Counted from the first letter of the stretch, positions 6,345 through 44,026 are shown. The stretch: DNA of 64,000 nucleotides from Planctomycetaceae bacterium (GCA_021297795.1 JAJTGL010000003.1:40370-104369), one strand, 5' to 3'. Numbers and translations: made by a program. The notes: generated by a model not told the origin, from the sequence alone.

Positions 6345-6818
6345 GTGGCAAGCAAGCATCTGATCGACCTCACCGCGATCGACCTCTCGAGGACGATCTG
6401 CGACAGTCGCGGGCTCGACGAGTATCTGCCTCAGACCGGGCCGATGCGGCAATGCGACCGCATCGTCTGGGTGAGCGAGGATCTCCGGAAGTGCATCGGC
6501 ATGAAGTACGTCCGGCCAGATGAGTTCTGGTGCGAGCACCACATCAAGGGGCGCCCGCTCTATCCGGGCGTGCTGATGATCGAGTCGACCGCGCAATGCG
6601 CGAGCTGGCTCTTCCGCACGCGCTTTCCGGCGCTTGGATTCCTCGGCTTCCTGCGCTGCGACGAAGCCTCGTTCCGAGGGCAGGTCGTTCCCGGCGATGA
6701 GTTCGTGATCCTCGTCGAGGAGATCGAGGCAACGCCCCGCCGCTTCATCTCGAAGACGCAGGGCATCGTGCGCGGCAAGCTCGTCTTCGAGGCGAAGATC
6801 ACCGGCATGGCGATCTGA
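6345..6818 (+). CDS. FabZ/FabA-like 3-hydroxyacyl-ACP dehydratase (hotdog fold)
   Basis: PDEFWCEHHIKGRPLYPGVLMIESTAQ gives the His plus PG.L..E hotdog dehydratase pattern. I chose the GTG at 6345 as start, which gives 157 aa, the usual size. Confidence 0.7.
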   Translation: MASKHLIDLTAIDLSRTICDSRGLDEYLPQTGPMRQCDRIVWVSEDLRKCIGMKYVRPDEFWCEHHIKGRPLYPGVLMIESTAQCASWLFRTRFPALGFLGFLRCDEASFRGQVVPGDEFVILVEEIEATPRRFISKTQGIVRGKLVFEAKITGMAI

Positions 6819-6866
6819 GCGCGCGAGCCAACCGCCATCGATCACGTCGCGCGCGACCCTTCCTTC

Positions 6867-16761: not shown

Positions 16762-18813
16762 TCATCCGGCGCGCGGCCGTGTCATGAGAATGACGACGAG
16801 CGCAATCGTTGCGACAAGCAGCAAGACTGCGACGATGAGCAGGATGAGGTTTATTCCACCGGAGTCCGTCCCGTCGGACCGCTCCTCGCCGAAAGGCGCT
16901 GGTGACACTGAACTCTCCGACGGATCGGCAGCCGCTCCGTTGCTTGCGAAGGCGCTTGCGAGTCGTCGATGCTTGTCCTCGCCTTCGGCGGGCGACAGGC
17001 CGAAGAGCTGCCATTCGCGCCCGGCTCGGTCGGCGCGTCCGTCCTGCTCGAGCACTACGCGCTCGATTCTTCGGTTCTCCGTCTCGCCCGCCTCGTCGAC
17101 CGCGAACACCGACATCTTCTTCCAGCGGCCGCGTTCATCCCATTCGGTGCATCGCCGACGCTCCGTGAGCACCGACTGCACTCCCTCGTCGAATGGCTCT
17201 ATGACGACGCCGTCTCCGGGAGCGGTCCGGTACTCAAACTCCGGATCATTCGCGATTTTCTGCTCGATGACGCGCAGCGCAAGCTCATCATCCGGCGTGC
17301 CCTTGCTCATGAGTTGAAGCTGCTCCACCTTTCCCAAGGCTCGCGAAACGGCGCGTTTGGTCACTTCGAGAAGTCGCCCTCTGTCGTCATATGTGTAAGT
17401 CCACTCCGCGTACGACTGTTCGGCGAGTTGGATCGAGCGCTCGATCCGCTCACGCCGATCCGAGCCACTCGCCTCGACCATATCGCGCAGGTACTGCATC
17501 TCTGGCGATCGGTCGATAGTCTTCATCCTCAGGCGCGCCACGCGACCAGTCGCGTCGTAAGACCATCGGTAGATAGCAGTCTTTCCATCAGCGTAAGGAC
17601 TGCCACCGAAAGGATGCTGTCCGATACGGTACTGGTGGATTCCGTCCCCGCTCGCGCGCATCTCAACCAACCTTCGGGCGTCGCCAGCGCGCTCGAAGTC
17701 GATCTCGATGCGACCACATTCGGCGCCGTCCTTCTTGTACTGGATGAGGACGTGGGAGTCGCCACGATTCTCAAGGCGCACCACAAGCCCATCGCCCTCC
17801 CGATGCGCGGAACTGATCGTTCGCCTACCGGCGCCATGACCATCCGCGTACTTGATGTCGATGTGCATGCGCTCGAGTAAGACTTGATCATCCTTCGGTC
17901 TCTCCGCGAATAGATCCACCTCATGACTCGCGTCGTCCCGCGCCCCGCCACGCATGTAGTCGACCGATTTACCCTCAATGGCCCGCCGACCACCTTCCGC
18001 ATAGAAGACAGGCTCGACGGAGTAGGCCTCGTCCACGACGGACTTGCCGAACTTACTCTCGACGGAACGCCTCAGTATCTCGGCGGCCAGCGCACCCTTG
18101 CCCCCGACGGGATCGAATGGATCGAAGATCCAGACCAGATCATCGAGCAGTGGACGAAAGGCAAGCTCCTGGCTCGAGTTGGATGGAGGAGTCCGCTGTT
18201 CCATGGAGCCGGGCCTCGGAAGTACGCCTTGGCCCCCGCCGAGGCGTCCACGCGCCGGCGAACTTCCTCCTGGCGTGTCGGCGCGCTCGTCCTGTGCCGA
18301 GGTTTCGCCACTTCGTGATTCTCCCTGCCGTTCGCGCTGTTCCGTCTCTTTGGGGACCGTGCGTGACCGCTCGGCTTCCTTCCGCGCTGCATCGAGCATG
18401 TCCTCGAGTTCCTCCTCGAGAACCACGAGTTGCTCTTTGGCAGCGTCAATCTCGGCCTTGATCTCGCGGGCCTCCGCGTCGAGCCGGGCCACCTTCGCCT
18501 GCCCCGCGCGATTCAGTCGTCCTCCCGAGTTGGCGAGCATCTTCTGATACTCGGCGTACTTGGCATCCCAGGCCGCTTGGCGCTCTGCAATCCGTGACTC
18601 CAGCGCCGAGATCTCACGACGTTTCGCCGCCGCCGCCCCTGGCTCTGCATACTCGGCCCCCGAATCCTGAGTCGTCGAGGCCCAGAAGCCATCCGACCGC
18701 ATGGAGAAGTCCGGGCCTTGCATCCAAACAGCGGGACTGGCCGAGCCCACGACACCGGAAAGCACGGCAGGGATCCAGATCGATGTTCCGAAGAGAGCCA
18801 GCATTGCATTCAA
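16762..18813 (-). CDS. hypothetical secreted coiled-coil protein with YD/RHS-like repeats and a C-terminal TM anchor
   Basis: There is an N-terminal signal-like segment. A long coiled coil follows (ISALESRIAERQAAWDAKYAEYQKML...EIKAEIDAAKEQLVVLEEELEDML). YD-like repeats include YRWSYDATGRVARL and WTYTYDDRGRLLEV. The C-terminal helix is INLILLIVAVLLLVATIALVVILM. GC and GC3 are visibly lower than in flanking genes. Confidence 0.6.
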   Translation of the reverse strand: MNAMLALFGTSIWIPAVLSGVVGSASPAVWMQGPDFSMRSDGFWASTTQDSGAEYAEPGAAAAKRREISALESRIAERQAAWDAKYAEYQKMLANSGGRLNRAGQAKVARLDAEAREIKAEIDAAKEQLVVLEEELEDMLDAARKEAERSRTVPKETEQRERQGESRSGETSAQDERADTPGGSSPARGRLGGGQGVLPRPGSMEQRTPPSNSSQELAFRPLLDDLVWIFDPFDPVGGKGALAAEILRRSVESKFGKSVVDEAYSVEPVFYAEGGRRAIEGKSVDYMRGGARDDASHEVDLFAERPKDDQVLLERMHIDIKYADGHGAGRRTISSAHREGDGLVVRLENRGDSHVLIQYKKDGAECGRIEIDFERAGDARRLVEMRASGDGIHQYRIGQHPFGGSPYADGKTAIYRWSYDATGRVARLRMKTIDRSPEMQYLRDMVEASGSDRRERIERSIQLAEQSYAEWTYTYDDRGRLLEVTKRAVSRALGKVEQLQLMSKGTPDDELALRVIEQKIANDPEFEYRTAPGDGVVIEPFDEGVQSVLTERRRCTEWDERGRWKKMSVFAVDEAGETENRRIERVVLEQDGRADRAGREWQLFGLSPAEGEDKHRRLASAFASNGAAADPSESSVSPAPFGEERSDGTDSGGINLILLIVAVLLLVATIALVVILMTRPRAG

Positions 18814-18846
18814 CTCCGTGGATCACTTGATCATGTAGTTCGACGG

Positions 18847-20178
18847 TCACGCCTCAAACAGCCCGGAAACCTCGCGGGCAAGTCGTACGCTTCCGTCCGG
18901 AGAAATCAGGCGGTCATTTCCGTCCAACCGCCCATCCGCCGCGAGTTCACGCAACTCCGCGATCGTGAAGGGCCCGAAGCGTGATCCATCCTCGAGTTCG
19001 ATGTGAAGGGTGCGAACGACGCGATCGACGATGCGCGGGGGCAGCATCCGAGACGGTGGGCTCTGCTGCGTGGATGTCTCCGAACGCGAGTGGCCCGCAC
19101 CGGCAGCCTCTCGGTCAACTCCCTGCTTTGGATTCTCCACCGCCGGAACCTCGGCCATCAAGCTCGGACTTGGCGTCGTGCTTTCGCTCGAGGGCATGGA
19201 GGCACTCGGATCATCGTGAGTGTTTGACGGGGCCACACGCACGCTGGGGACAAGCGGCTTCTCCGTGGCATCGCCATCCGTGCGTATGACCACACGACGT
19301 GCGGACTCGTGGACCTTGTGCACTCCGATCTTGGTCATGGGCTTCCGGTCCGCAGCCGACGGCGCGCTCGCGTCGAAAGGAGCGGGACTCGCTGAAACGC
19401 GCGCGTCGCCGCGGGAGGCGGAGTCCGCGAGCGGGATCGGAGAGTCGCTGCCATCGTTCAGTGGGTCCCCTGAGACCGTTGCAGTCGGTTCGCCCGAAGC
19501 AACGGCCCCGAGCGTCGTCGCTCCCTGTGGAGCACGCTTCGCAAGCACACGCTCCCCGTTCACCAGCGCGTATGCGAGCCAGCCGGTTGTCGCGATCGTC
19601 ACACCCGCTTGGATGCGGTCACCGGTGGTCGACTCCTTCGCCGTCAGCTTCTTCCAGTTCTCAATCAGTACCAGCACAATGAGGAGACCGGCGACGATCT
19701 TGAAGACGCCCACAGCCACGCCGAATCCGCCTCGGCCGTTGTGCTCGAATGCCCGCTCGAAGCTCGACCAACCGAGCAGCAGGCCGAAGCCCCCGACGCA
19801 GAGACCGGCGATCAGCATGACGAGCGAGAGGCCGTGCTCGACGGCTCCGCCGATCAGGCCGCCTCCGATGAAGATCACGACCACACTGCCGAAGGAGAGG
19901 AAAAAGTCCCCCCAGTCCTCAAAAATGACCACTTCATCCCTCGCTCCTTTGAAGGTGAGCCAGATCGCCCCTCCGAGGAGAGTGAGCACGACCGCAAAGA
20001 CGACCAACATGAGCAGGGCGAGCAACTCCTGTCCGATCCAACCGCCGAGTCCTTGGGCCTCCGCGAGGACGCTCACGATTGCGCCAGGCGTCGGGGACAG
20101 TCGAGCCACGGGGCCAACGTCGATGTCTCCGGTGGAAGTGCCTACGCGAAAGAAGCTTGCAAGGATGCAGCTGCTCAT
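18847..20178 (-). CDS. multi-pass membrane protein with C-terminal GYF_2-like domain
   Basis: About five hydrophobic helices occupy the N-terminal half, followed by a disordered linker. The C-terminus VRTLHIELEDGSRFGPFTIAELRELAADGRLDGNDRLISPDGSVRLAREV fits the GYF_2 (DUF4339) pattern. The exact start is uncertain. Confidence 0.55.
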   Translation of the reverse strand: MSSCILASFFRVGTSTGDIDVGPVARLSPTPGAIVSVLAEAQGLGGWIGQELLALLMLVVFAVVLTLLGGAIWLTFKGARDEVVIFEDWGDFFLSFGSVVVIFIGGGLIGGAVEHGLSLVMLIAGLCVGGFGLLLGWSSFERAFEHNGRGGFGVAVGVFKIVAGLLIVLVLIENWKKLTAKESTTGDRIQAGVTIATTGWLAYALVNGERVLAKRAPQGATTLGAVASGEPTATVSGDPLNDGSDSPIPLADSASRGDARVSASPAPFDASAPSAADRKPMTKIGVHKVHESARRVVIRTDGDATEKPLVPSVRVAPSNTHDDPSASMPSSESTTPSPSLMAEVPAVENPKQGVDREAAGAGHSRSETSTQQSPPSRMLPPRIVDRVVRTLHIELEDGSRFGPFTIAELRELAADGRLDGNDRLISPDGSVRLAREVSGLFEA

Positions 20179-36085: not shown

Positions 36086-38413
36086 TCAGCCCCAGTTGCC
36101 CAGCTGGATCGCGAGATCGCTCGCCCCGGTGGTGCCGTCGCCGTCGAGATCGGTGGCGCCCGCGCTGCCCCAACCGGCAAGCAGCGTGGCGAGGTCTGCG
36201 GCATCGACGTCGCCGTCGCCATCGAGATCCCCCGGCTGCGAGGGGCATGCGGTCGAACTCACGCGCACGAAGTCGACACCGGCCTCGACGAGCGACCCCG
36301 TGGCGAGGTCGCGCGCCTGGAACCGCACGCGCACCGAGGGCCCCGGCGTCACGTAGTCGGCGACGCGGAAACTGCGATCGACCCACGTCCCCGCGTTCTG
36401 CGCGACATCCTCGAGCAGCACCCAGTTGATGCCGTCCGAGGAGATCGCCACGGGCATCGAGTCCGCGTTCGGCGCGCCACCGAGGTTGTTCGAGTACCAG
36501 CGGCGGTAGCTGAGCACCGCGGACGCATCGCTCGCATCGAGCGCGGGCGAGACGAGGGTTGTCGTCCCGCCGTCGACATCGGCGGACCCCGCCGCGCCAC
36601 CGACCGCGCCCTGCCCCGTGATGAAGCAGAGCACGCCGGCGTCGCTCGAGTCGTTCTCCGGCTGCGCGGTCGTTCCGATCGGGTCGACGCGCGTCCAGAG
36701 GCCGGCCGTCGCGTTGTCTCCCGCCGCGCCGACGACCCAACCGAGACTGTTCTCGAAGGTGTCCTCGAACGCGATGCTGCTGTCGACGAGTTCGGTCGTG
36801 AAGACGGCAGGCGAAGCCTCGGGGAGTCGTGCGGTACCGACGGTGGTTGCGGCGGTGAGGTACCACTCGATCGTCGCGCCGCAGGCGGCGGTCGGAAGCG
36901 TCGCCGTGAAGAGACCCGCCGCGCCGGCCGTCATCGGAATCTCGCTGAAGGAGCCCGTCGAGCCGACACGCGCGCGCAGCGACACGCCGTTCGCGGCGAG
37001 GTTGCCGCGCATGGCGCGTACTTCGGCCGTGACGGTCGCGGGGACGTCGTACTCGACCGATGCCGGAGCGCCGCCCGGCAGCCGGATAACGGCGCCATCG
37101 ACCGTCGCATCGGCGAGCTCGAGCGCCGCCGCGAAGTTCTCGCTCGCGTTCGGCACGATCTCGCCAGCAGGCATGACGAAGCCGTACGAACCGGTGTCGC
37201 GCACCTCGATGGTGTAGCTCGGCACGCCATGCTGCCCCCACGCGTGGTCCACCGAACTGCCGCTTGCGATGTAGAGCGTGGATGCGATCGGACCGACGGT
37301 GTACGAGAGGCCCGACGTGCGCGCGATGGCATCCTTCATGTCGTTGCCGAGCGCGATGAACGCGGCGTTGTTCGCGGGAAGCTCGGTGGTGTATCCCCAC
37401 GGCGAGAGGATGAGCTGGCTGTACGCGTGGAAGTCGATGTGACCGGCGAGGGTGGTCTGCGCGATGAAGTAGTCGCGCAGCGCCGCACTCTCGGGCTCGC
37501 TGAACGGCGAGGGACCGCGGTAGGTGGGATCGTTGGGAACGGTGCTCGCGCCCCCGCCACCCCACTGGAACGCCCAGTTCCGGTTGAGATCGACGCCGGA
37601 TGTTCCGTCCGAGTTGAGGCGACGGTTCTTGCGCCAGAGCCGGTCGACGGTCCACGACCAGACGTAGCCGTCGGGATTGCACACGGGAATCACGTCGATC
37701 CACGCGCGATCGAGCAGCGCGGTCACGCGCGGATCCGTCCCGTAGCGCTCGATCAGCTGGTCGGCGATGTACATCGACGTCGTCTGCGCGCCCCATTCGC
37801 GCGCATGCTGCGTGGCGTTGAAGAGGACGCCGGGGCTTCCCGCGGGGGCCTTCGAGATGCGAATGCCGCGGATCGGCCGACCCTCGAGCGAAGTGCCGAT
37901 GACGAAGGGCGTCACGAGATCCGGCCGTGCGGCGATCCACGCATCGAGCTGCGCGTAGGTCTCGGCGAGCGTGCGGAAGTCGGTGAAGTAGGTGCCGCCT
38001 GCGACGCCACCCTCGCCCTCGCCCGCACCTGCACGGAACTCCACGCGGTTCGCGCGCCCGGCGTACTCGGCGCGCAGGAGCGGACCGAGGTCCTCGATCA
38101 GAACCTCGTGCGGGATACCGGTGGACGCGAACGCCGCCCGTGCCTTCGCGTCGACGATGAAGTCGACCGGTCCGACATCGATGCGATGATTGAGGACGTC
38201 GGCCGCGAGGGTGAGCACCGTTCGGACGTCGCGCGCGGTGCGGACGGTCGCGCGCAGCACGGAGCGTCCGTCGTGGAACTCGGGCGTCGACGTCGCTCCC
38301 GCCCCGACCGCCCGTGCGGCAGTGTGGCCGTTCGCGAGGATCGGCGCCGGCGAAGGCGGCACGGCGCCGGCGGACTGGAGCTGAAGGATCGCGAGCGCGA
38401 GGGTTGCGAGCAT
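36086..38413 (-). CDS. secreted M14 zinc carboxypeptidase with extra beta-rich domains and dockerin-like C-terminus
   Basis: HAREWGAQ (HxxE zinc ligands), VDLNRNW and IDFHAYSQLILSPWGY are present. There is a signal peptide (MLATLALAILQLQSAGA). The C-terminus reads DLDGDGDVDAADLATLLAGWG / DLDGDGTTGASDLAIQLGNWG. The start is the ATG at 38413, inside ORF 36086..38668. Confidence 0.85.
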   Translation of the reverse strand: MLATLALAILQLQSAGAVPPSPAPILANGHTAARAVGAGATSTPEFHDGRSVLRATVRTARDVRTVLTLAADVLNHRIDVGPVDFIVDAKARAAFASTGIPHEVLIEDLGPLLRAEYAGRANRVEFRAGAGEGEGGVAGGTYFTDFRTLAETYAQLDAWIAARPDLVTPFVIGTSLEGRPIRGIRISKAPAGSPGVLFNATQHAREWGAQTTSMYIADQLIERYGTDPRVTALLDRAWIDVIPVCNPDGYVWSWTVDRLWRKNRRLNSDGTSGVDLNRNWAFQWGGGGASTVPNDPTYRGPSPFSEPESAALRDYFIAQTTLAGHIDFHAYSQLILSPWGYTTELPANNAAFIALGNDMKDAIARTSGLSYTVGPIASTLYIASGSSVDHAWGQHGVPSYTIEVRDTGSYGFVMPAGEIVPNASENFAAALELADATVDGAVIRLPGGAPASVEYDVPATVTAEVRAMRGNLAANGVSLRARVGSTGSFSEIPMTAGAAGLFTATLPTAACGATIEWYLTAATTVGTARLPEASPAVFTTELVDSSIAFEDTFENSLGWVVGAAGDNATAGLWTRVDPIGTTAQPENDSSDAGVLCFITGQGAVGGAAGSADVDGGTTTLVSPALDASDASAVLSYRRWYSNNLGGAPNADSMPVAISSDGINWVLLEDVAQNAGTWVDRSFRVADYVTPGPSVRVRFQARDLATGSLVEAGVDFVRVSSTACPSQPGDLDGDGDVDAADLATLLAGWGSAGATDLDGDGTTGASDLAIQLGNWG

Positions 38414-38553
38414 CGTCCGAGTGTGGACCGGACCACCCCCCGTCGCAAGCGGGTACCGTCCGTTTCGCGGAGATTCGCCCGCGCCAGCGCGAGATCCGGA
38501 CGCGCCGCGGCGGCGGCCGGACGGCACGCGGCACGCGCTACACTCGCCATTCC

Positions 38554-39771
38554 ATGCCGATCCGCGCCCGCAGCACGACATTCCTCGCGATCGCCACGAT
38601 GCTGGCAGCGCCGCTCCTCTCCGGATGCACGCGCTACTTCGCGAGCGCGCCCGATCTCTCCGAGCCATCCGGCGGGATCGTGACGCGCAGTCCCGCGTCG
38701 CCGCGCAGCCTCGTCATGTTCGAGGGCTCGACCGGCCGATCGCTCGGGTGGGCCGATGTGATGGCCGCCGCGTCGTGGGCCGACTGCACCTTCATCGGCG
38801 AGCGCCACGACGACCCCGTGGCGCATGCGGTGCAACTGGCGATCTTCGAGGATCTGGCGGCGGGCTATCCGGGCACGGCGATCGCGCTCGAACACCTTGA
38901 GCGCGATGAGCAGGCGACGGTCGACCGCTACCTCGCGGGCGAGATCACGCGCGATGAGTTCATCGATTCCACCGAGAGCCGCGACTGGGCCGGCAAGGAC
39001 ACCTGGGTGGTGTTCTTCCAGCCGCTCGTCGACGCGGCGCGCGAGGTGGGCTCGCCGGTCGTGGCCGCGAATGCACCGCGCGAGGCGGTGCGCGAGGCGC
39101 GCGCGATCGGTCACGACGCGATGCGCGCGAAGCCGACCGCCGAGCAGGCCGACTTCGATCTCCCCATCACCACGCGCGACGGGCTCTTCACCGACGACTG
39201 GAACGGCCGTTGGAACGCCTACTTCGACCGCTTCGTCGACATCATGTCGCCATCGGACGACGACGACCCCTCGTCGACCCGCGAACGGCTTGCGAACGTC
39301 TTTCTCTCGCAATCGGTGTGGGACGGCACGATGGGCGCGTCGGCGGCGCGCGCGCGCGAACAGGGTGCGCCGAAGGTCGTCCTCTGCGCCGGCTGCTTCC
39401 ACGTCGAGCGCGACGGCGGCACGGTGCTCCAGTTCGAGGCACGGCGGCCGATGGACCGCGTGCTCACCGTCACCGTGATCGACGACTCGAGCGCCGTGCT
39501 CCGTGAACAGGATCGCGGCGCCGCGGACATCGTCATCTACGGCTTCCGTCCCGCACGGCCGGCGAAGACCGAACCCACCCCGGATGCGTCGCCCGACCAC
39601 GCGCCTGGCGATCCGGCGCCGCCGGAGCCTCCGACGCAAACCCAGAGCCGCGCGTCGATTCCGCAGGATCCGGCTGCGAAACGCCCGACCGGCGTGGCGA
39701 CGGGAACCACGTCACGGGAGCCACGTCACGGGAAGCACGACACGGGAACCACGATTTCGCGCACCCGCTAG
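38554..39771 (+). CDS. ChaN-family lipoprotein (haem-binding uptake / Tiki superfamily)
   Basis: The lipobox is LLSGC. FIGERHDDPVAHAVQLAIFEDL and IALEHLERD match the ChaN/Cofac_haem_bdg pattern. The C-terminal tail is P-rich. Confidence 0.7.
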   Translation: MPIRARSTTFLAIATMLAAPLLSGCTRYFASAPDLSEPSGGIVTRSPASPRSLVMFEGSTGRSLGWADVMAAASWADCTFIGERHDDPVAHAVQLAIFEDLAAGYPGTAIALEHLERDEQATVDRYLAGEITRDEFIDSTESRDWAGKDTWVVFFQPLVDAAREVGSPVVAANAPREAVREARAIGHDAMRAKPTAEQADFDLPITTRDGLFTDDWNGRWNAYFDRFVDIMSPSDDDDPSSTRERLANVFLSQSVWDGTMGASAARAREQGAPKVVLCAGCFHVERDGGTVLQFEARRPMDRVLTVTVIDDSSAVLREQDRGAADIVIYGFRPARPAKTEPTPDASPDHAPGDPAPPEPPTQTQSRASIPQDPAAKRPTGVATGTTSREPRHGKHDTGTTISRTR

Positions 39772-39783
39772 GATGACCGCCCC

Positions 39784-40161
39784 ATGAGTTCGCTCCCCGC
39801 TTCGAAGAAGACGACCCTCGTCGAGATCAACACCCACCCCGGGGTGCTTCATGTGAAGCTGCTCGGGCCTCAGGTCGGTCAGCGCGAGTCGCCGCTCATC
39901 AGCCAGGATGTCGAGCCCTACATCCGCGACGCAGGCAAGACGATGAAGTTCTTCGTCGTCGACCTCCAGTCGGTGACCTTCATGAGCTCGATGGGTCTCG
40001 GCATCTGCATCGCCCTGCGTCACAAGGCGCACGCCGCGGGCGCGAAGTCGATCCTCTACGGCACCCCGAAGGAACTGATGCAGCTCTTCACGATGATGAA
40101 GATCGACAAGCTGTACACCTTCGCGAAGGACCAGCGCGAGCTCGACGCGGCCATGCGCTGA
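39784..40161 (+). CDS. STAS-domain anti-sigma-factor antagonist (SpoIIAA-like)
   Basis: VVDLQSVTFMSSMGLGICIAL carries the conserved phosphorylatable Ser context (F.SS.GLG). The 125-aa size also fits. Confidence 0.8.
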   Translation: MSSLPASKKTTLVEINTHPGVLHVKLLGPQVGQRESPLISQDVEPYIRDAGKTMKFFVVDLQSVTFMSSMGLGICIALRHKAHAAGAKSILYGTPKELMQLFTMMKIDKLYTFAKDQRELDAAMR

Positions 40162-40186
40162 TCCGCGCCGCACGTCCAGGTCCGCT

Positions 40187-40783
40187 TCACTTCGCGAGCC
40201 TACGGACGACCCCCGGCGTGAGGAACCACTTGATCTGCGCGCGGAGCACGGTGCCGCCCGATGCACCGTTGGATGCGGTGCGCGGCGCCACGGCATCGGT
40301 GTCGATGTCGACTTGCAGCGAAAGCGCCGCGCCTTTCCGAAAGTCGATCGCCATGCCGCCGGAAGAGCCCGTGAGGAGGAGCGAGGCGAGGCGCGACAGC
40401 ATGGGCTCGTGACCGACCCATGCGACGACCGGGACCGCCGCGAGCGCCGCGAGGGTGCGCATGAGCGACTCCTCCTGCACCCGCTCGGCCTGGCGACGAA
40501 CGACGGGGTCCGGCGACTCGGTGTCGGCGTGGATCTCGAGACGCTCGAGTCTGGCGGCCTTCGGCCACCGCGCGTGCTCCTCGAGGAGCATCGCCGTCTG
40601 CCACGCGCGTACGAACCCGCTTGATTCCACCAGCTCAACCTCGGACGCCACGTGGCGCAGGCGCTTCGCGAACCGGGCGAACTGATCGCGTCCATCCTCG
40701 GTCAATGGACGCCGGCTGTCGTCGGGCCAGGCTGCCGCATCGCGCTCGAAGGCCTTCGCATGCCGGATGAGGATGAGTTCCAT
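40187..40783 (-). CDS. sixA: histidine phosphatase superfamily protein (SixA-like)
   Basis: MELILIRHAKA (RHG-type motif), PLTEDGRDQ and WVGHEP are present. The start is the ATG at 40783, inside ORF 40187..40861. Confidence 0.65.
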   Translation of the reverse strand: MELILIRHAKAFERDAAAWPDDSRRPLTEDGRDQFARFAKRLRHVASEVELVESSGFVRAWQTAMLLEEHARWPKAARLERLEIHADTESPDPVVRRQAERVQEESLMRTLAALAAVPVVAWVGHEPMLSRLASLLLTGSSGGMAIDFRKGAALSLQVDIDTDAVAPRTASNGASGGTVLRAQIKWFLTPGVVRRLAK

Positions 40784-40863
40784 CGGAAACCTCGCGGAAC
40801 AAGTGCGGGAGATCGACCTCCGCGCAAGGTAGCCAAATCGCCGGGATCTGCGAGAATCCACGC

Positions 40864-42132
40864 ATGGCTTCCGAGGTCCTCTTCACGAACGTGCGCATCC
40901 TCACGCTGGCGCAGCCGTCCGTGGCCGGCGCGGGTTCGCGGGGCCCGCGACGCGGACACGCCATGCGCGATCTCGGCGTCATCGAACGCGGGTACGTGCA
41001 CGCGGTCGACGGTCGGATCGCCGCAGTCGGATCCGGAGACCCACCGGCGGAGATCAAGGCCGCGCGCTGCGACTACGACGGCTGCGTGCTGATGCCGGCG
41101 TTCGTCGACTGCCACACGCATGCGTGCTGGGGCGGCAACCGCTACGACGAGGTCGCCGAGCGGCTCGCGGGCGTCCCCTACCTCGACATCCTGGCCCGCG
41201 GGGGCGGCATCATGTCGACCGTGCGCGCCACACGCGACGCGTTTGCGGGTGACCCTCTCGGAGAAGGCCTGCTCCGCATCCTCAGCAGGCGCGCGGAGGC
41301 GATGCGCCGCCACGGGAGCCTCGCCATCGAGGTCAAGTCGGGCTACGGCCTCGATCGCGTGACGGAGCTCGAGATGCTTCGCGCCGTGCGCGCCCACGGG
41401 ATCAACGCCGAACACGATGGCGACGGCTTCTTCGTGCCGACCTTCCTCGCGGCGCATGCGATCGACGGCGATGAGACCGCCTACTGCACGCGCGTGATCG
41501 ACGAGCTGCTGCCTGAAGTCGTCGCCGAGTTCGGGCCGATCGCCTGCGATGCGTACTGCGAGAAGGGCGCGTGGAGTCCGGCGTGGACGCGCAAGCTGTT
41601 CGAGCGCGCGCAGGCGCTTGGTTGCCCGCTCCGCGTCCATGTCGACCAGTTCAACGAACTCGGGTTCCTCGAGACGGCGCTCGAGATGGGCGCGCGCAGC
41701 GTGGATCACCTCGAGGCGACCTCGCGCGATGGACTCGTGCGTGTCGCGCGGTCGCAGTCGACGGCGGTGCTCCTGCCCGGATGCGGCCTCACGCTCGACG
41801 GGCGGTACGCGAACGGCCGATTTCTGATCGACGAGGGTGCGGCGGTCGCGATCGCGACCAACTGCAATCCCGGCTCGAGTCCGATCGTGTCGATGCCGTT
41901 CATCATCGCGCTCGCCGCGCGATTCTGCGGGCTCACGCCGGCGGAGGCGATCACCGCCGCGACCTACAACGCGGCGTGCGTGCTGGGAATCGAGCACGAG
42001 ACCGGCTCGATCGAGGTCGGGAAGCGCGCGCATCTCGTGCTGCTCCCGACACACGACGAGCGCGCACTCGCCTGCGAATGGGCGATGTCGGAGCCGTGCG
42101 AGGTGTTCGCGGGGCACACGACGCTCTGGTAG
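40864..42132 (+). CDS. hutI: imidazolonepropionase-like amidohydrolase
   Basis: PAFVDCHTH, GGGIMSTVRATR, VKSGYGL, CDAYCE, VHVDQF, SVDHLE and ATNCNPGSSP are present. Confidence 0.8.
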   Translation: MASEVLFTNVRILTLAQPSVAGAGSRGPRRGHAMRDLGVIERGYVHAVDGRIAAVGSGDPPAEIKAARCDYDGCVLMPAFVDCHTHACWGGNRYDEVAERLAGVPYLDILARGGGIMSTVRATRDAFAGDPLGEGLLRILSRRAEAMRRHGSLAIEVKSGYGLDRVTELEMLRAVRAHGINAEHDGDGFFVPTFLAAHAIDGDETAYCTRVIDELLPEVVAEFGPIACDAYCEKGAWSPAWTRKLFERAQALGCPLRVHVDQFNELGFLETALEMGARSVDHLEATSRDGLVRVARSQSTAVLLPGCGLTLDGRYANGRFLIDEGAAVAIATNCNPGSSPIVSMPFIIALAARFCGLTPAEAITAATYNAACVLGIEHETGSIEVGKRAHLVLLPTHDERALACEWAMSEPCEVFAGHTTLW

Positions 42133-42308
42133 GAGCGGCGTACGTCGCTGTTCCGGGCCGATGTCTGCGCAATTCCTGCGCAAACCCTGACCCTACAACC
42201 GGAATTTCCGGCGCTTTCCCACCCCGGACCAAAGTCGCCGCTGCGCTCGCCCGATCCCTGCGCCACGCATGTGCGCGGATCGGTCCGCGTGTGCGCGCAG
42301 AGTCCCCC

Positions 42309-43002
42309 ATGGAGTCACACATGTACAACACGATGCCGAACGGCTGGTCGCCCTCGAATACGCCCTGGAACAACTGCAACAACTGCCCGGGCTTCGACAG
42401 CAGCGACTGCTGCGGTGGCAACGGCTTCCAGAACAACGGCTTCCAGAACAACGGCTTCCAGAACAACGGCTTCCAGAACAACGGCTTCCAGAACAACGGC
42501 TTCCAGAACAACTGGAACGGCTTCGTGGAACGGCTGGAACTGGAACCGCACGAACACGTTCGGCTGGAATCCGAACTCGACGTGGAACTGGAACGGCTTC
42601 AGCGGCTGGAACAACACGACGCCGTGGAACGGCTGGAACACGCCGTGGACCAACACGTGGTTCAACACGAATCCGTGGCCGTCGAACCAGTGGACCGGCA
42701 ACTGGGGCTACAACGGCTTCCCGGGCTACAACGGCTTCCAGAACTTCAACGGCTTCCAGAACTTCAACGGCTTCCAGGGCTGGAACAACTTCCCGAGCTT
42801 CAACGGTTGGAACAACACCACGCCGTGGAACGGCTCGAACAACAACTGGAACACGAACGGCAACACGAACTGGAACGGCGGCAACTGGAACGGCACGACC
42901 GGAACGAACCCGTTCGCGAATCCGACCAACGGCGAGCAGGCCGGCACCTGCGGCACCACGACGAACTGCGCCCCGACCATGAAGGTCCGCACCGTCGCCT
43001 GA
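42309..43002 (+). pseudogene. Asn/Trp/Gly/Phe-rich low-complexity protein gene interrupted by a +1 frameshift at about 42525
   Basis: Frame 0 (42309 or 42321 to 42524) reads M(ESHM)YNTMPNGWSPSNTPWNNCNNCPGFDSSDCCGGN(GFQNN)x6 WNGF with G/C-rich third positions. From 42526 the same composition and GC3 bias continue only in the +1 frame (WNGWNWNRTNTFGWNPNSTWNWNGFSGWNN...), up to the stop at 43002. In the original frame the continuation is GAA-rich with poor GC3 and has no stop until 44012. Confidence 0.5.
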
Positions 43003-43164
43003 GCCGCACAGCACAGAGCATCCACCACGCGACGCCGCCCGGATCCTTCCGAGGCGGTGTCATTTTTGGATGTCCTCCCGAGGCTCCGGCGGCGGATACG
43101 GCTCGATCCCGGGGCGACGGCGCCCCACCGAGATGGCTGGCCGAACGGCTACCATGTCCGCCCC

Positions 43165-43977
43165 ATGCTCGTCACCAAGCCCGAGGACATCGAGGGAGCA
43201 ACGAACGCCGCCGCGTGCGTCGTGAAGACGCACGAGCGCCTCGTCGAGTTCCTCCGCGTGGGTCAGACGCTCGCCGAGATCGACGCCTTCGTCGGTCGCA
43301 CGCTCGCCGAACTCGACGCCCCGAGCTGCTTCGTCGGCTACAAGATTCGCGGGCATCCGCCCTTCCCGTCGCACGCGTGCCTCAGCGTCAACAGCTGCGT
43401 CGTGCACGGCACGCACGACATGGATGCGTCGCCGCTCCGGCCGGGCGACCTCCTCTCGATCGATATCGGCGTCCGGCACCGCGGCTGGATCGGCGACGCC
43501 GCGTGGACCTACGCGATCCGCGAGCGCGACCGGCTCGGCGAGGCGCTGATGAAGTGCGGCGTCGAGAGCCTGCGCCGCGGCGTGGCCGCGCTGAAGCCGG
43601 GGCGGCCGCTCATCGACTTCGCGAAGGCGGTGCAGGGGCACGTCGAGCGCGAGTGCAAGTTCGCGCTCGTGCGCGGCCTCGGCGGTCATGGCTACGGCCG
43701 CGAGCTGCACGGACCGCCGTTCGTCTCGAACGTGGTTCCCTCCTACCCCGGCGAATGGCCGGAGGCGTGGAAGGAGATCAAGCCGGGCCTGCTCGTCGCG
43801 GTCGAGCCCATGATCGCGGTCTCGACCTCGGAGACGCGCTCGCGCGGACGCGAGTGGCCCGTGTACACCGCCGACGGCTCGATGAGCGTGCACTACGAGG
43901 CCGATGTCCTCGTCACCGCGCAGGGCCCCGTCAATCTCACGCAAGGACTCTTCGATCTGCCCGAAATCGTCGGCTGA
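43165..43977 (+). CDS. map: type I methionine aminopeptidase
   Basis: ACLSVNSCVVHG, DLLSIDIG, GHGYGRELH and VAVEPM provide the metal-ligand contexts. The start is the ATG at 43165. Confidence 0.9.
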   Translation: MLVTKPEDIEGATNAAACVVKTHERLVEFLRVGQTLAEIDAFVGRTLAELDAPSCFVGYKIRGHPPFPSHACLSVNSCVVHGTHDMDASPLRPGDLLSIDIGVRHRGWIGDAAWTYAIRERDRLGEALMKCGVESLRRGVAALKPGRPLIDFAKAVQGHVERECKFALVRGLGGHGYGRELHGPPFVSNVVPSYPGEWPEAWKEIKPGLLVAVEPMIAVSTSETRSRGREWPVYTADGSMSVHYEADVLVTAQGPVNLTQGLFDLPEIVG

Positions 43978-44026
43978 ACGCCGCCGTCCGCGGCGTGCCT
44001 CCGAACCCCTGACCACACCGATCCAC

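Follow-up and report, generated by a model that had tools for sequence, protein, structure and literature searches.

An Asn/Trp-rich, almost charge-free gene of freshwater Phycisphaerales with a probable non-programmed frame break

Why should two adjacent reading frames of the same DNA encode the same, highly unusual amino acid composition? The question is raised by a 64,000 nt sequence from a Planctomycetaceae bacterium (GCA_021297795.1 JAJTGL010000003.1:40370-104369), here called the window, in which all positions are counted from the first letter and whose G+C content is 68%. Between a gene for an amidohydrolase (upstream) and one for a methionine aminopeptidase (MetAP), it holds a low-complexity sequence rich in Asn, Trp, Gly and Phe that begins in one frame and continues in the next. 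A preliminary description of the locus left four explanations standing: a sequencing or assembly error, a recent inactivation, phase variation through repeat slippage, and programmed +1 frameshifting. The first two survive our analysis, and the last two can be set aside. We find that positions 42321-43002 are one real gene; its family is small, has not been described before and is confined to freshwater Phycisphaerales (Planctomycetota). We put the probability that a real gene carries a non-programmed break here at about 0.93.

One gene in two frames

Translation in frame 0 gives MESHMYNTMPNGWSPSNTPWNNCNNCPGFDSSDCCGGN(GFQNN)x6WNGF (..CCGGN(GFQNN)x6WNGF) and then degenerates into a Glu/Arg/Leu-rich nonsense sequence. 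The native composition is taken up by frame +1 from position 42526 (WNGWNWNRTNTFGWNPNS...; WNGWNWNRTNTFGWNPNSTWNWNGF...TCGTTTNCAPTMKVRTVA) and is kept to a TGA at 43000-43002; frame 0 itself has no stop between 42525 and 43075. Calculated in 90-nt windows, the G+C content of third codon positions (GC3) lies between 0.87 and 1.00 in frame 0 as far as ~42510; beyond this point it is frame +1 that has the high values (0.83-1.00). A log-odds scan of codon usage, trained on the long genes of the window, likewise recovers coding sequence at 42300-42527 in frame 0 and at 42526-42999 in frame +1. The gene as a whole has a GC3 of 0.97, against 0.91 in the other genes of the window, and uses the preferred codons of the genome. 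Tandem Repeats Finder (TRF) detects a 15-nt unit repeated 6.3 times at 42419-42512 with 100% matches, followed downstream by further units of 9, 12, 18 and 27 nt. These results bear out the preliminary description in three respects: the shared composition of the two adjacent frames, the switch of GC3 at ~42525, and the perfect sixfold 15-nt repeat upstream of it. The parts of the gene are as follows.

42321..42524, + strand: 5' part of the gene, frame 0, with the ATG at 42321, the Cys-rich head MYNTMPNGWSPSNTPWNNCNNCPGFDSSDCCGG, (GFQNN)x6 and WNGF; supported by translation, GC3, orthologues and the Shine-Dalgarno (SD) sequence.
42419..42512, + strand: tandem array, a perfect 15-nt unit CAACGGCTTCCAGAA x6.3 encoding GFQNN x6; TRF score 188.
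42519..42526, + strand: out-of-frame junction, a gain of 3n+1 or a loss of 3n+2 nt, where ..NNWNGF of frame 0 meets (S)WNGWNWN.. of frame +1.
42526..43002, + strand: 3' part of the gene, frame +1, with W/N/G/F-rich repeats (units of 9, 18 and 27 nt), GEQAGTCGTTTNCAPT, the tail MKVRTVA and the TGA at 43000-43002.

The start had earlier been placed at 42309. We move it to the ATG at 42321, because the orthologues have no Met before the sequence MYNT and because a GGAG SD sequence (42311-42314) lies 6-8 nt before it.

That the two halves belong together is established by the relatives of the gene. A first search of 5.8 billion protein clusters recovered a single relative, P0001, from a metagenome-assembled genome. 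This protein of 262 residues is encoded in a single frame, has the same N-terminus as the window gene and ends in ..GMKVRSVA. Its neighbourhood has the same order as the window: His_Phos_1, Amidohydro_1, the gene, Peptidase_M24 and Peptidase_S9. Loci gathered through the flanking amidohydrolase group the window with freshwater Phycisphaerales, and an Asn/Trp-rich open reading frame (ORF) lies directly 3' of the amidohydrolase throughout the close clade. Scanning metagenomes with the family alignment added nine loci. All 16 complete syntenic loci (256-430 residues) are in one frame, as are seven further full-length database proteins, and in all of these the head M(Y/N)NTxPNGWSP..C-x2-C-P-G-F-x-S-S-D-C-C-G-G and the tail (M/V)(K/R)VR(S/T)VA are invariant. 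Conservation is not limited to one of the two segments: the head, the W/N-rich body and the tail are present in every orthologue. The preliminary proposal of one gene split by a change of frame is thus upheld, since both halves are conserved coding sequence that every orthologue reads in a single frame.

The nearest intact alleles, L083 and L084, share ~95% nucleotide identity with the window in the alignable flanks. Comparison of the window with L083 reveals five synonymous and no non-synonymous codon differences in the head. The part after the shift has 158 codons, of which 132 are identical; 16 of the others have synonymous and 10 have non-synonymous changes, and there is no internal stop. 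The corresponding synonymous and non-synonymous counts are 82 and 18 for the amidohydrolase and 58 and 1 for MetAP. This divergence supports selection acting on the protein.

High-G+C DNA does produce long spurious ORFs at this locus. Frame 0 of the + strand is free of stops from 41517 to 44012 (~830 codons), a stretch that takes in the end of the amidohydrolase gene together with all of the low-complexity gene and the MetAP gene, and antisense ORFs of 128-273 aa overlap the gene. The 41517-44012 stretch is an artefact of high G+C content, and could mislead gene callers once the native frame has been broken. It might then be asked whether the locus encodes any protein, or consists of non-coding repeats that are open merely through their G+C content. 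We give this explanation practically no credence. GC3 approaches 1.0 (~1.0) in a single frame only; the start, the SD sequence, the head and the tail are conserved, with changes in the head being synonymous only; and the composition is kept across unrelated repeat units and distant lineages. The pattern of conservation already refutes it.

The nature of the break

The intact alleles L083 and L084 indicate what the window has lost and gained at the join. In one frame, both read GNGFQNN-WNGF-, then NGANTPWTNNSNWNNNWNWNGFGGFNGWNNTTP or a similar segment, then WNGWNWNRTNTFGWNPNSTWNWNGF..; in other words, GFQNNWNGF is separated from WNGWNWNRTNTF by 20-33 codons, and this extra segment at the join site reads NGANTPW...GWNNTTP. 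In the window these 20-33 codons are missing and WNGF is fused directly to (g)TGGAACGGCTGG.. (...AACTGGAACGGCTTCGTGGAACGGCTGG... at the join; GGCTTCGTGGAACGG within 42505-42545). DNA alignment also places six perfect copies of GFQNN in the window against one in L083 and L084. The simplest view of G42525 is that it was left behind by a codon that is otherwise gone, as the final base of a Pro codon (CCG) or the initial base of a Gly codon (GGT). The loss would then amount to 3n+2 nt: 32 nt with one choice of homologous WNGF and 98 nt with the other. The preliminary description had named G42525 as the single extra base. This does not hold: any gain of 3n+1 or loss of 3n+2 nt within 42519-42526 fits the shift. 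A plausible Ser-Trp is already readable in frame +1 from 42523, and a single extra T in GGCT(T)CG explains the shift equally well, so that no particular base can be assigned as the extra one.

The join is specific to this lineage, and lies in the body region directly after the freshly expanded (GFQNN)x6 array, which ends 13 nt upstream. The break is recent, because the 158 codons that follow it, 18 of them TGG, contain no stop. We would explain the join as a non-programmed deletion or rearrangement in a region of fast repeat turnover.

Native coding signal in both adjacent frames and a tandem repeat next to the break are features shared with prfB-type +1 frameshift sites and with simple sequence repeat (SSR) contingency loci. 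The locus differs from these systems in that the break is not conserved, slippery or stop context is lacking and the repeat units are multiples of three. Programmed +1 ribosomal frameshifting would fuse the two frames into one protein of 226 aa, which would agree with the native composition of both frames and the lack of a stop between them. However, the shift is absent from the 16 complete syntenic loci and the seven further database proteins. The codons around the join are AAC UGG AAC GGC UUC GUG GAA CGG; at GGC-UUC-GUG-GAA, tRNA-Phe cannot re-pair on UCG, and there is no in-frame stop, no rare codon and no SD-like (GGAGG-like) element upstream. Compared with the nearest alleles, the site is recognisable as a deletion scar rather than a conserved motif. 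With the shift unconserved and slippery, stop and SD context all missing, we consider programmed frameshifting extremely improbable.

The perfect tandem array close to the join would also suit a phase-variable contingency gene that is turned ON and OFF as repeats slip, as would the strong variation in copy number between otherwise identical alleles. Three loci, L001 (2658-3446), L090 (28-879) and L087 (2501-3793), carry 3, 4 and 11 copies, respectively, of a 63-nt (21-residue) unit, ..NGNPWNNAWNGSTPWNTFPAT..; outside the repeats the three do not differ (60/60 N-terminal and 140/140 C-terminal residues). These differences correspond either to very fast in-frame change of copy number or to collapse of repeats in assembly. 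Yet the copies are in frame in all three loci, and every tandem unit of the family that we detected is a multiple of three (9, 12, 15, 18, 27 and 63 nt), and therefore slippage can neither change nor restore the frame. Neither the gene nor its leader has a homopolymer or a short non-triplet tract near the join, and all other alleles are ON. Phase variation by slippage, contradicted by triplet units and by natural copy-number variants that stay in frame, is very unlikely.

Two readings of the break are left. The first, to which we give slightly better than even odds, is that this strain carries a genuine null allele of a real gene, recent and non-programmed. Translation initiated at 42321 would then depart from the native frame after ~68 residues and enter the Arg/Glu/Leu-rich nonsense frame. 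As frame 0 has no stop before the terminator at 43031-43069, translation would run off the end of the transcript, making it a non-stop mRNA. No stable product would be expected, and the allele, if real, would be null. In support of a genuine allele, the codon-score scan detected this as the sole frame break in 64 kb, assemblies of the gene elsewhere break or gap rather than shift frame, and the gene is missing from most Phycisphaerales, in which only ~60-170 nt separate the two flanking genes.

Several observations weigh against a genuine allele. An independent contig from the Logan collection, L082 (SRR7182479), belongs to essentially the same strain, matches window positions 37459-42354 with 1 mismatch in 4896 nt and ends 33 nt into the gene. 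The exact spot where it ends (42354) is the site of a 12-nt indel in L084, and several alleles therefore probably coexist in the sample. This suggests that the window sequence could be a chimera, or poorly polished at the join. Moreover, if the true allele reads ..NNWNGSWNGW.., a single extra T (T to TT) explains the whole shift. A local consensus or polishing error in this repeat-rich, strain-heterogeneous spot accordingly deserves serious weight, at somewhat below even odds. The gene of the organism would then be intact, and its repeat-rich, multi-allelic region misassembled; possible causes are a 1-nt indel in a long-read consensus beyond the reach of short-read polishing, or a chimera of coexisting alleles.

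The gene is indeed hard to assemble. Five contigs end inside it (L006, L012, L084, L089 and L082, the last from the same strain), and in L002 a run of N at ~6660-6820 lies within the gene, with a change of frame across the run. Removal of one T from GGCT(T)CG restores the reading ..NWNGSWNGWNWN.., and the 3' part has not decayed. On the other side, no other frame break was seen in 64 kb, which shows that indels are not a general problem of the assembly. Homopolymers of at least 4 nt are absent within 170 nt of the join (in the gene they occur only at 42704 and 42971), and no exact repeat of at least 17 nt bridges the join in such a way that a k-mer graph would mis-join it out of phase. A de Bruijn assembler outputs only k-mers that are present in the reads, which we also count against an artefact. 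All 16 independent assemblies of orthologues are in frame. Exact-sequence look-ups for independent assemblies across the join returned, with the amidohydrolase, only the Logan contig that ends in the gene; the product of the +1 ORF, two variants of the MetAP start and the S9 peptidase were not on record.

A second frame break was suspected at 18.8-20.2 kb and was rejected, the region holding two ordinary complete ORFs. They belong to two adjacent complete genes at 16762-20178 on the - strand (683 aa and 443 aa), which have weak codon bias, membrane segments and long Ser/Pro/Ala/Glu-rich low-complexity linkers.

A patchy family with a conserved leader

As a frame break in a repeat-rich gene, the event is ordinary and one-off; the gene itself is of more interest. 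Its family is conserved, belongs to one lineage and has never been annotated, and its composition is among the most extreme seen in bacteria. When 1.84 billion representative proteins were searched exhaustively with HMMER, 8 hits were obtained, just 5 of them with E<=1e-10, and a word-indexed search gave 11 relatives, all unnamed or labelled 'hypothetical protein'. The joined protein has no hits in Pfam or NCBIfam at E<=10, which agrees with the earlier impression that it belongs to no recognised family, and none among PDB sequences at E<=1. A search of the literature for bacterial or planctomycete proteins rich in Asn and Trp produced no relevant result. Gene callers and assemblers frequently break down on this gene, and a yield of 8-11 relatives from billions of predicted proteins is a lesson for annotation.

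Adjacency of the amidohydrolase and MetAP is general in Phycisphaerales (L013-L081). The gap between them is 31-213 nt in most genomes and 0.7-1.5 kb in the clade of the window, where it is filled by the low-complexity gene. Outside this clade the gene is found patchily in the gap (L019, L044, L049, L052 and L077); one further locus, L017, has a gap of 673 nt in which no such low-complexity ORF was seen. In distant Phycisphaerales the same intergenic slot holds uncharged N/G/W/F/T/P-rich repeat ORFs (L019, L035, L044, L049, L052 and L077). Their repeat units are unrelated to those of the window, and their tails follow the pattern R/K-x-(V/A)-A (..NKTNVA, ..NKRNVA, ..ARNAA, ..ARHAA and ..ARSAA); some also have a C-P-x-F/Y-x4-C-C motif. 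The gene is dispensable on an evolutionary time scale, being lost or absent in most Phycisphaerales, and its patchy distribution suggests either that it has been lost repeatedly or that an old gene has diverged very fast.

The gene is bordered by two further elements.

42133..42320, + strand: conserved leader (promoter and/or 5' untranslated region, UTR), with invariant blocks in alignments of 14 to 16 orthologous loci.
43031..43069, + strand: probable intrinsic terminator, a GC-rich hairpin followed by UCAUUUUUGG, identified by RNA folding.

The invariant blocks of the leader are better conserved than most of the coding body. They comprise GCGCA-N5-TGCGC at 42167-42181, CCAAAGTC at 42229-42236, a 19-nt block CCCGATCCCTGCGCCACGC (CCCGATnnCTGCGCCACGC) at 42250-42268, and ...GCGCGCAGAGTCCCCC followed by GGAG at 42290-42314, with conservation spanning 42250-42320. 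The 19-nt block is present in a single copy per locus and is confined to loci with the gene. A conserved RNA structure in the leader was considered and dropped: RNAalifold predicts a weak structure of -11 kcal/mol with almost no covariation, and for this reason we take the conservation to be at the level of sequence. Rfam has no match in the whole window, nor in the leader at a permissive threshold. The leader may be a promoter or operator, or a sequence-specific element of the 5' UTR. A scan for consensus promoters and terminators found nothing and missed the terminator hairpin, which becomes visible only on folding: the region 43020-43075 folds at -29.3 kcal/mol (z = -5.6), and 0 of 200 shuffled sequences are as stable. 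The position of the terminator just after the stop implies a monocistronic unit.

The intact protein and its possible function

The joined product comprises 230 residues, or 226 when counted from M42321, and contains 64 Asn, 34 Gly, 26 Thr, 23 Trp and 20 Phe. Asn makes up 28% of it, Gly 15%, Trp 10% and Gln 5%, as compared with 2.9% Asn and 1.6% Trp in the products of neighbouring genes. Counted from M42321, only six of the 226 residues are charged (D26, D29, R76, E205, K221 and R223), leaving R76 and E205 as the only charges between residues 30 and 220. The preliminary figure of one Arg and one Glu over about 170 residues therefore extends to ~190. The six Cys are divided between the head (four) and the region near the C-terminus (two), as had been described. 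There is no signal peptide or membrane segment, the maximal 19-residue Kyte-Doolittle mean being 0.02, again in agreement with the earlier observation; a hydrophobic N-terminus is absent from every member of the family, the distant ones included.

The protein consists of three parts: an invariant 33-residue head (C-x2-C-x7-CC), a hypervariable repeat body, and an invariant tail, MKVR(S/T)VA. The body has almost no charge, and Asn, Trp, Gly, Phe, Thr and Pro are very abundant in it. AlphaFold2, run with an alignment of 11 sequences, returned no secondary structure and a mean predicted local distance difference test score (pLDDT) of 43.8, and the body is accordingly predicted to be disordered. 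Aromatic residues account for 46 of the 226 positions, with a mean spacing of 4.4 residues. They are spread more evenly than in shuffled sequences (z = -3.4), and adjacent pairs number 2 where 10.1 would be expected; in 12 relatives, distant ones included, the z-score of aromatic clustering ranges from -1.4 to -4.2. Asn is the residue after Trp in 73% of cases, and the residue before Trp is Pro, Gly or Asn ([P/G/N]-W-N), while Phe mostly follows Gly. Among the 23 Trp of the window protein there are 7 GW and 1 WG; the Phe motifs are 13 GF, 1 FG and no GLFG.

What might such a protein do in the cell? Tentatively, and judging from composition, patterning and predicted disorder, we would guess that the intact protein is a cytoplasmic, self-associating polypeptide of the sticker-and-spacer kind. 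The Trp and Phe found every 4-5 residues would act as stickers, and Asn, Gly, Thr and Pro as uncharged spacers. The Cys head could be a metal or redox site, and the conserved tail a site of partner recognition. It counts against this guess that the even spacing of aromatics follows in part automatically from tandem repetition. A more far-reaching and, in our judgement, improbable prediction is that the protein is a bacterial counterpart of cohesive low-complexity domains, FG-nucleoporin-like or prion-like, that condenses as a gel or as droplets in the planctomycete cytoplasm. In such a condensate, cross-linking through the four Cys of the head would depend on metal or redox state, the R-x-(V/A)-A tail would serve as a docking site for a partner or a protease, the material properties would be tuned by the rapid turnover of repeats in frame, and the window would hold a natural knockout of the scaffold. 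If self-association is real, the family would offer a simple bacterial model for Trp-driven condensation, and a way into the cell biology of freshwater Phycisphaerales, an uncultured and poorly understood group.

By its sequence features, the protein can be grouped with low-complexity proteins that have aromatic stickers and polar spacers. Like the prion-like domains of yeast Sup35 N, FUS and hnRNPA1, its body has a high content of Asn and Gln (33% N+Q), is nearly free of charge and is rich in Gly, Ser, Thr and Pro, with short oligopeptide repeats, a predicted disordered stretch of at least 60 residues and aromatics that are dispersed and rarely adjacent. Cb-Rho is a bacterial example of a prion-like domain. 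Unlike in these domains, the main stickers are Trp (10%) and Phe rather than Tyr, and the aromatic density (~1 in 4.4) is much higher. Low complexity extends over nearly the whole protein instead of being appended to a folded domain, and the Cys4 head and the C-terminal heptapeptide are further differences. Searches of Pfam, NCBIfam, the 1.84 billion representative proteins and PDB gave no sequence homology to prion-like domains. Even dispersal of aromatics is the pattern described for prion-like sticker-spacer domains (PMC8638251).

Cohesive FG (GLFG) domains of Nup98 share with the protein an extreme depletion of charge, spacers of Asn, Gln, Thr and Gly, and aromatic-Gly motifs (13 GF). Charge depletion is essential for the FG phase, and in the Nup98 FG domains, which span 500-700 residues, an FG occurs roughly every 12 residues, GLFG is the dominant motif, and Trp, Cys and Tyr are selected against (PMC9918544). 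In contrast, the family described here has 226-430 residues, conserved Cys clusters and no anchor domain, and the window protein has 10% Trp and 1 FG. Given the selection against Trp and Cys and the FG density of Nup98, the protein does not belong to the Nup98 class. Its many Trp residues, with Gly or small polar neighbours in disordered sequence rich in Asn, Ser and Thr, recall the GW-repeat regions of the GW182 or 'Ago-hook' type. The dominant context of its Trp is nevertheless [P/G/N]-W-N, and Trp-binding pockets are a feature of eukaryotic Argonautes.

Other functions were considered and rejected. The preliminary description had pointed to many N-x-S/T sequons. Eight are indeed present, but shuffled sequences of the same composition contain 9.2 +/- 2.4; without enrichment, and with no signal peptide, an N-glycoprotein is not indicated. 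A role in nitrogen storage was dismissed since the protein has only 1.46 N atoms per residue, which we judged unremarkable. An ssrA-like ClpXP degron in the tail was rejected as well: a degron screen in E. coli gave the consensus [LFYW]-[LAR]-L-A-A with short polar residues depleted at the third-last position (PMC10862746), and the tails here end in R-(S/T)-V-A (R/T-N-V-A or R-(N/H/S)-A-A in distant members), in which the third-last residue is short and polar. A secreted functional amyloid resembling curli CsgA does not fit, as no member has a Sec signal peptide or a hydrophobic N-terminus.

One weak hit of the searches, P0011 (137 aa; E = 6e-3 and 1.3e-5), is unrelated, and its similarity is probably only compositional. 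It has a clear signal peptide, PWNN/GWNN repeats and a charged, helical C-terminal half, and this architecture means that Trp-Asn repeats also occur in a secreted context in another organism.

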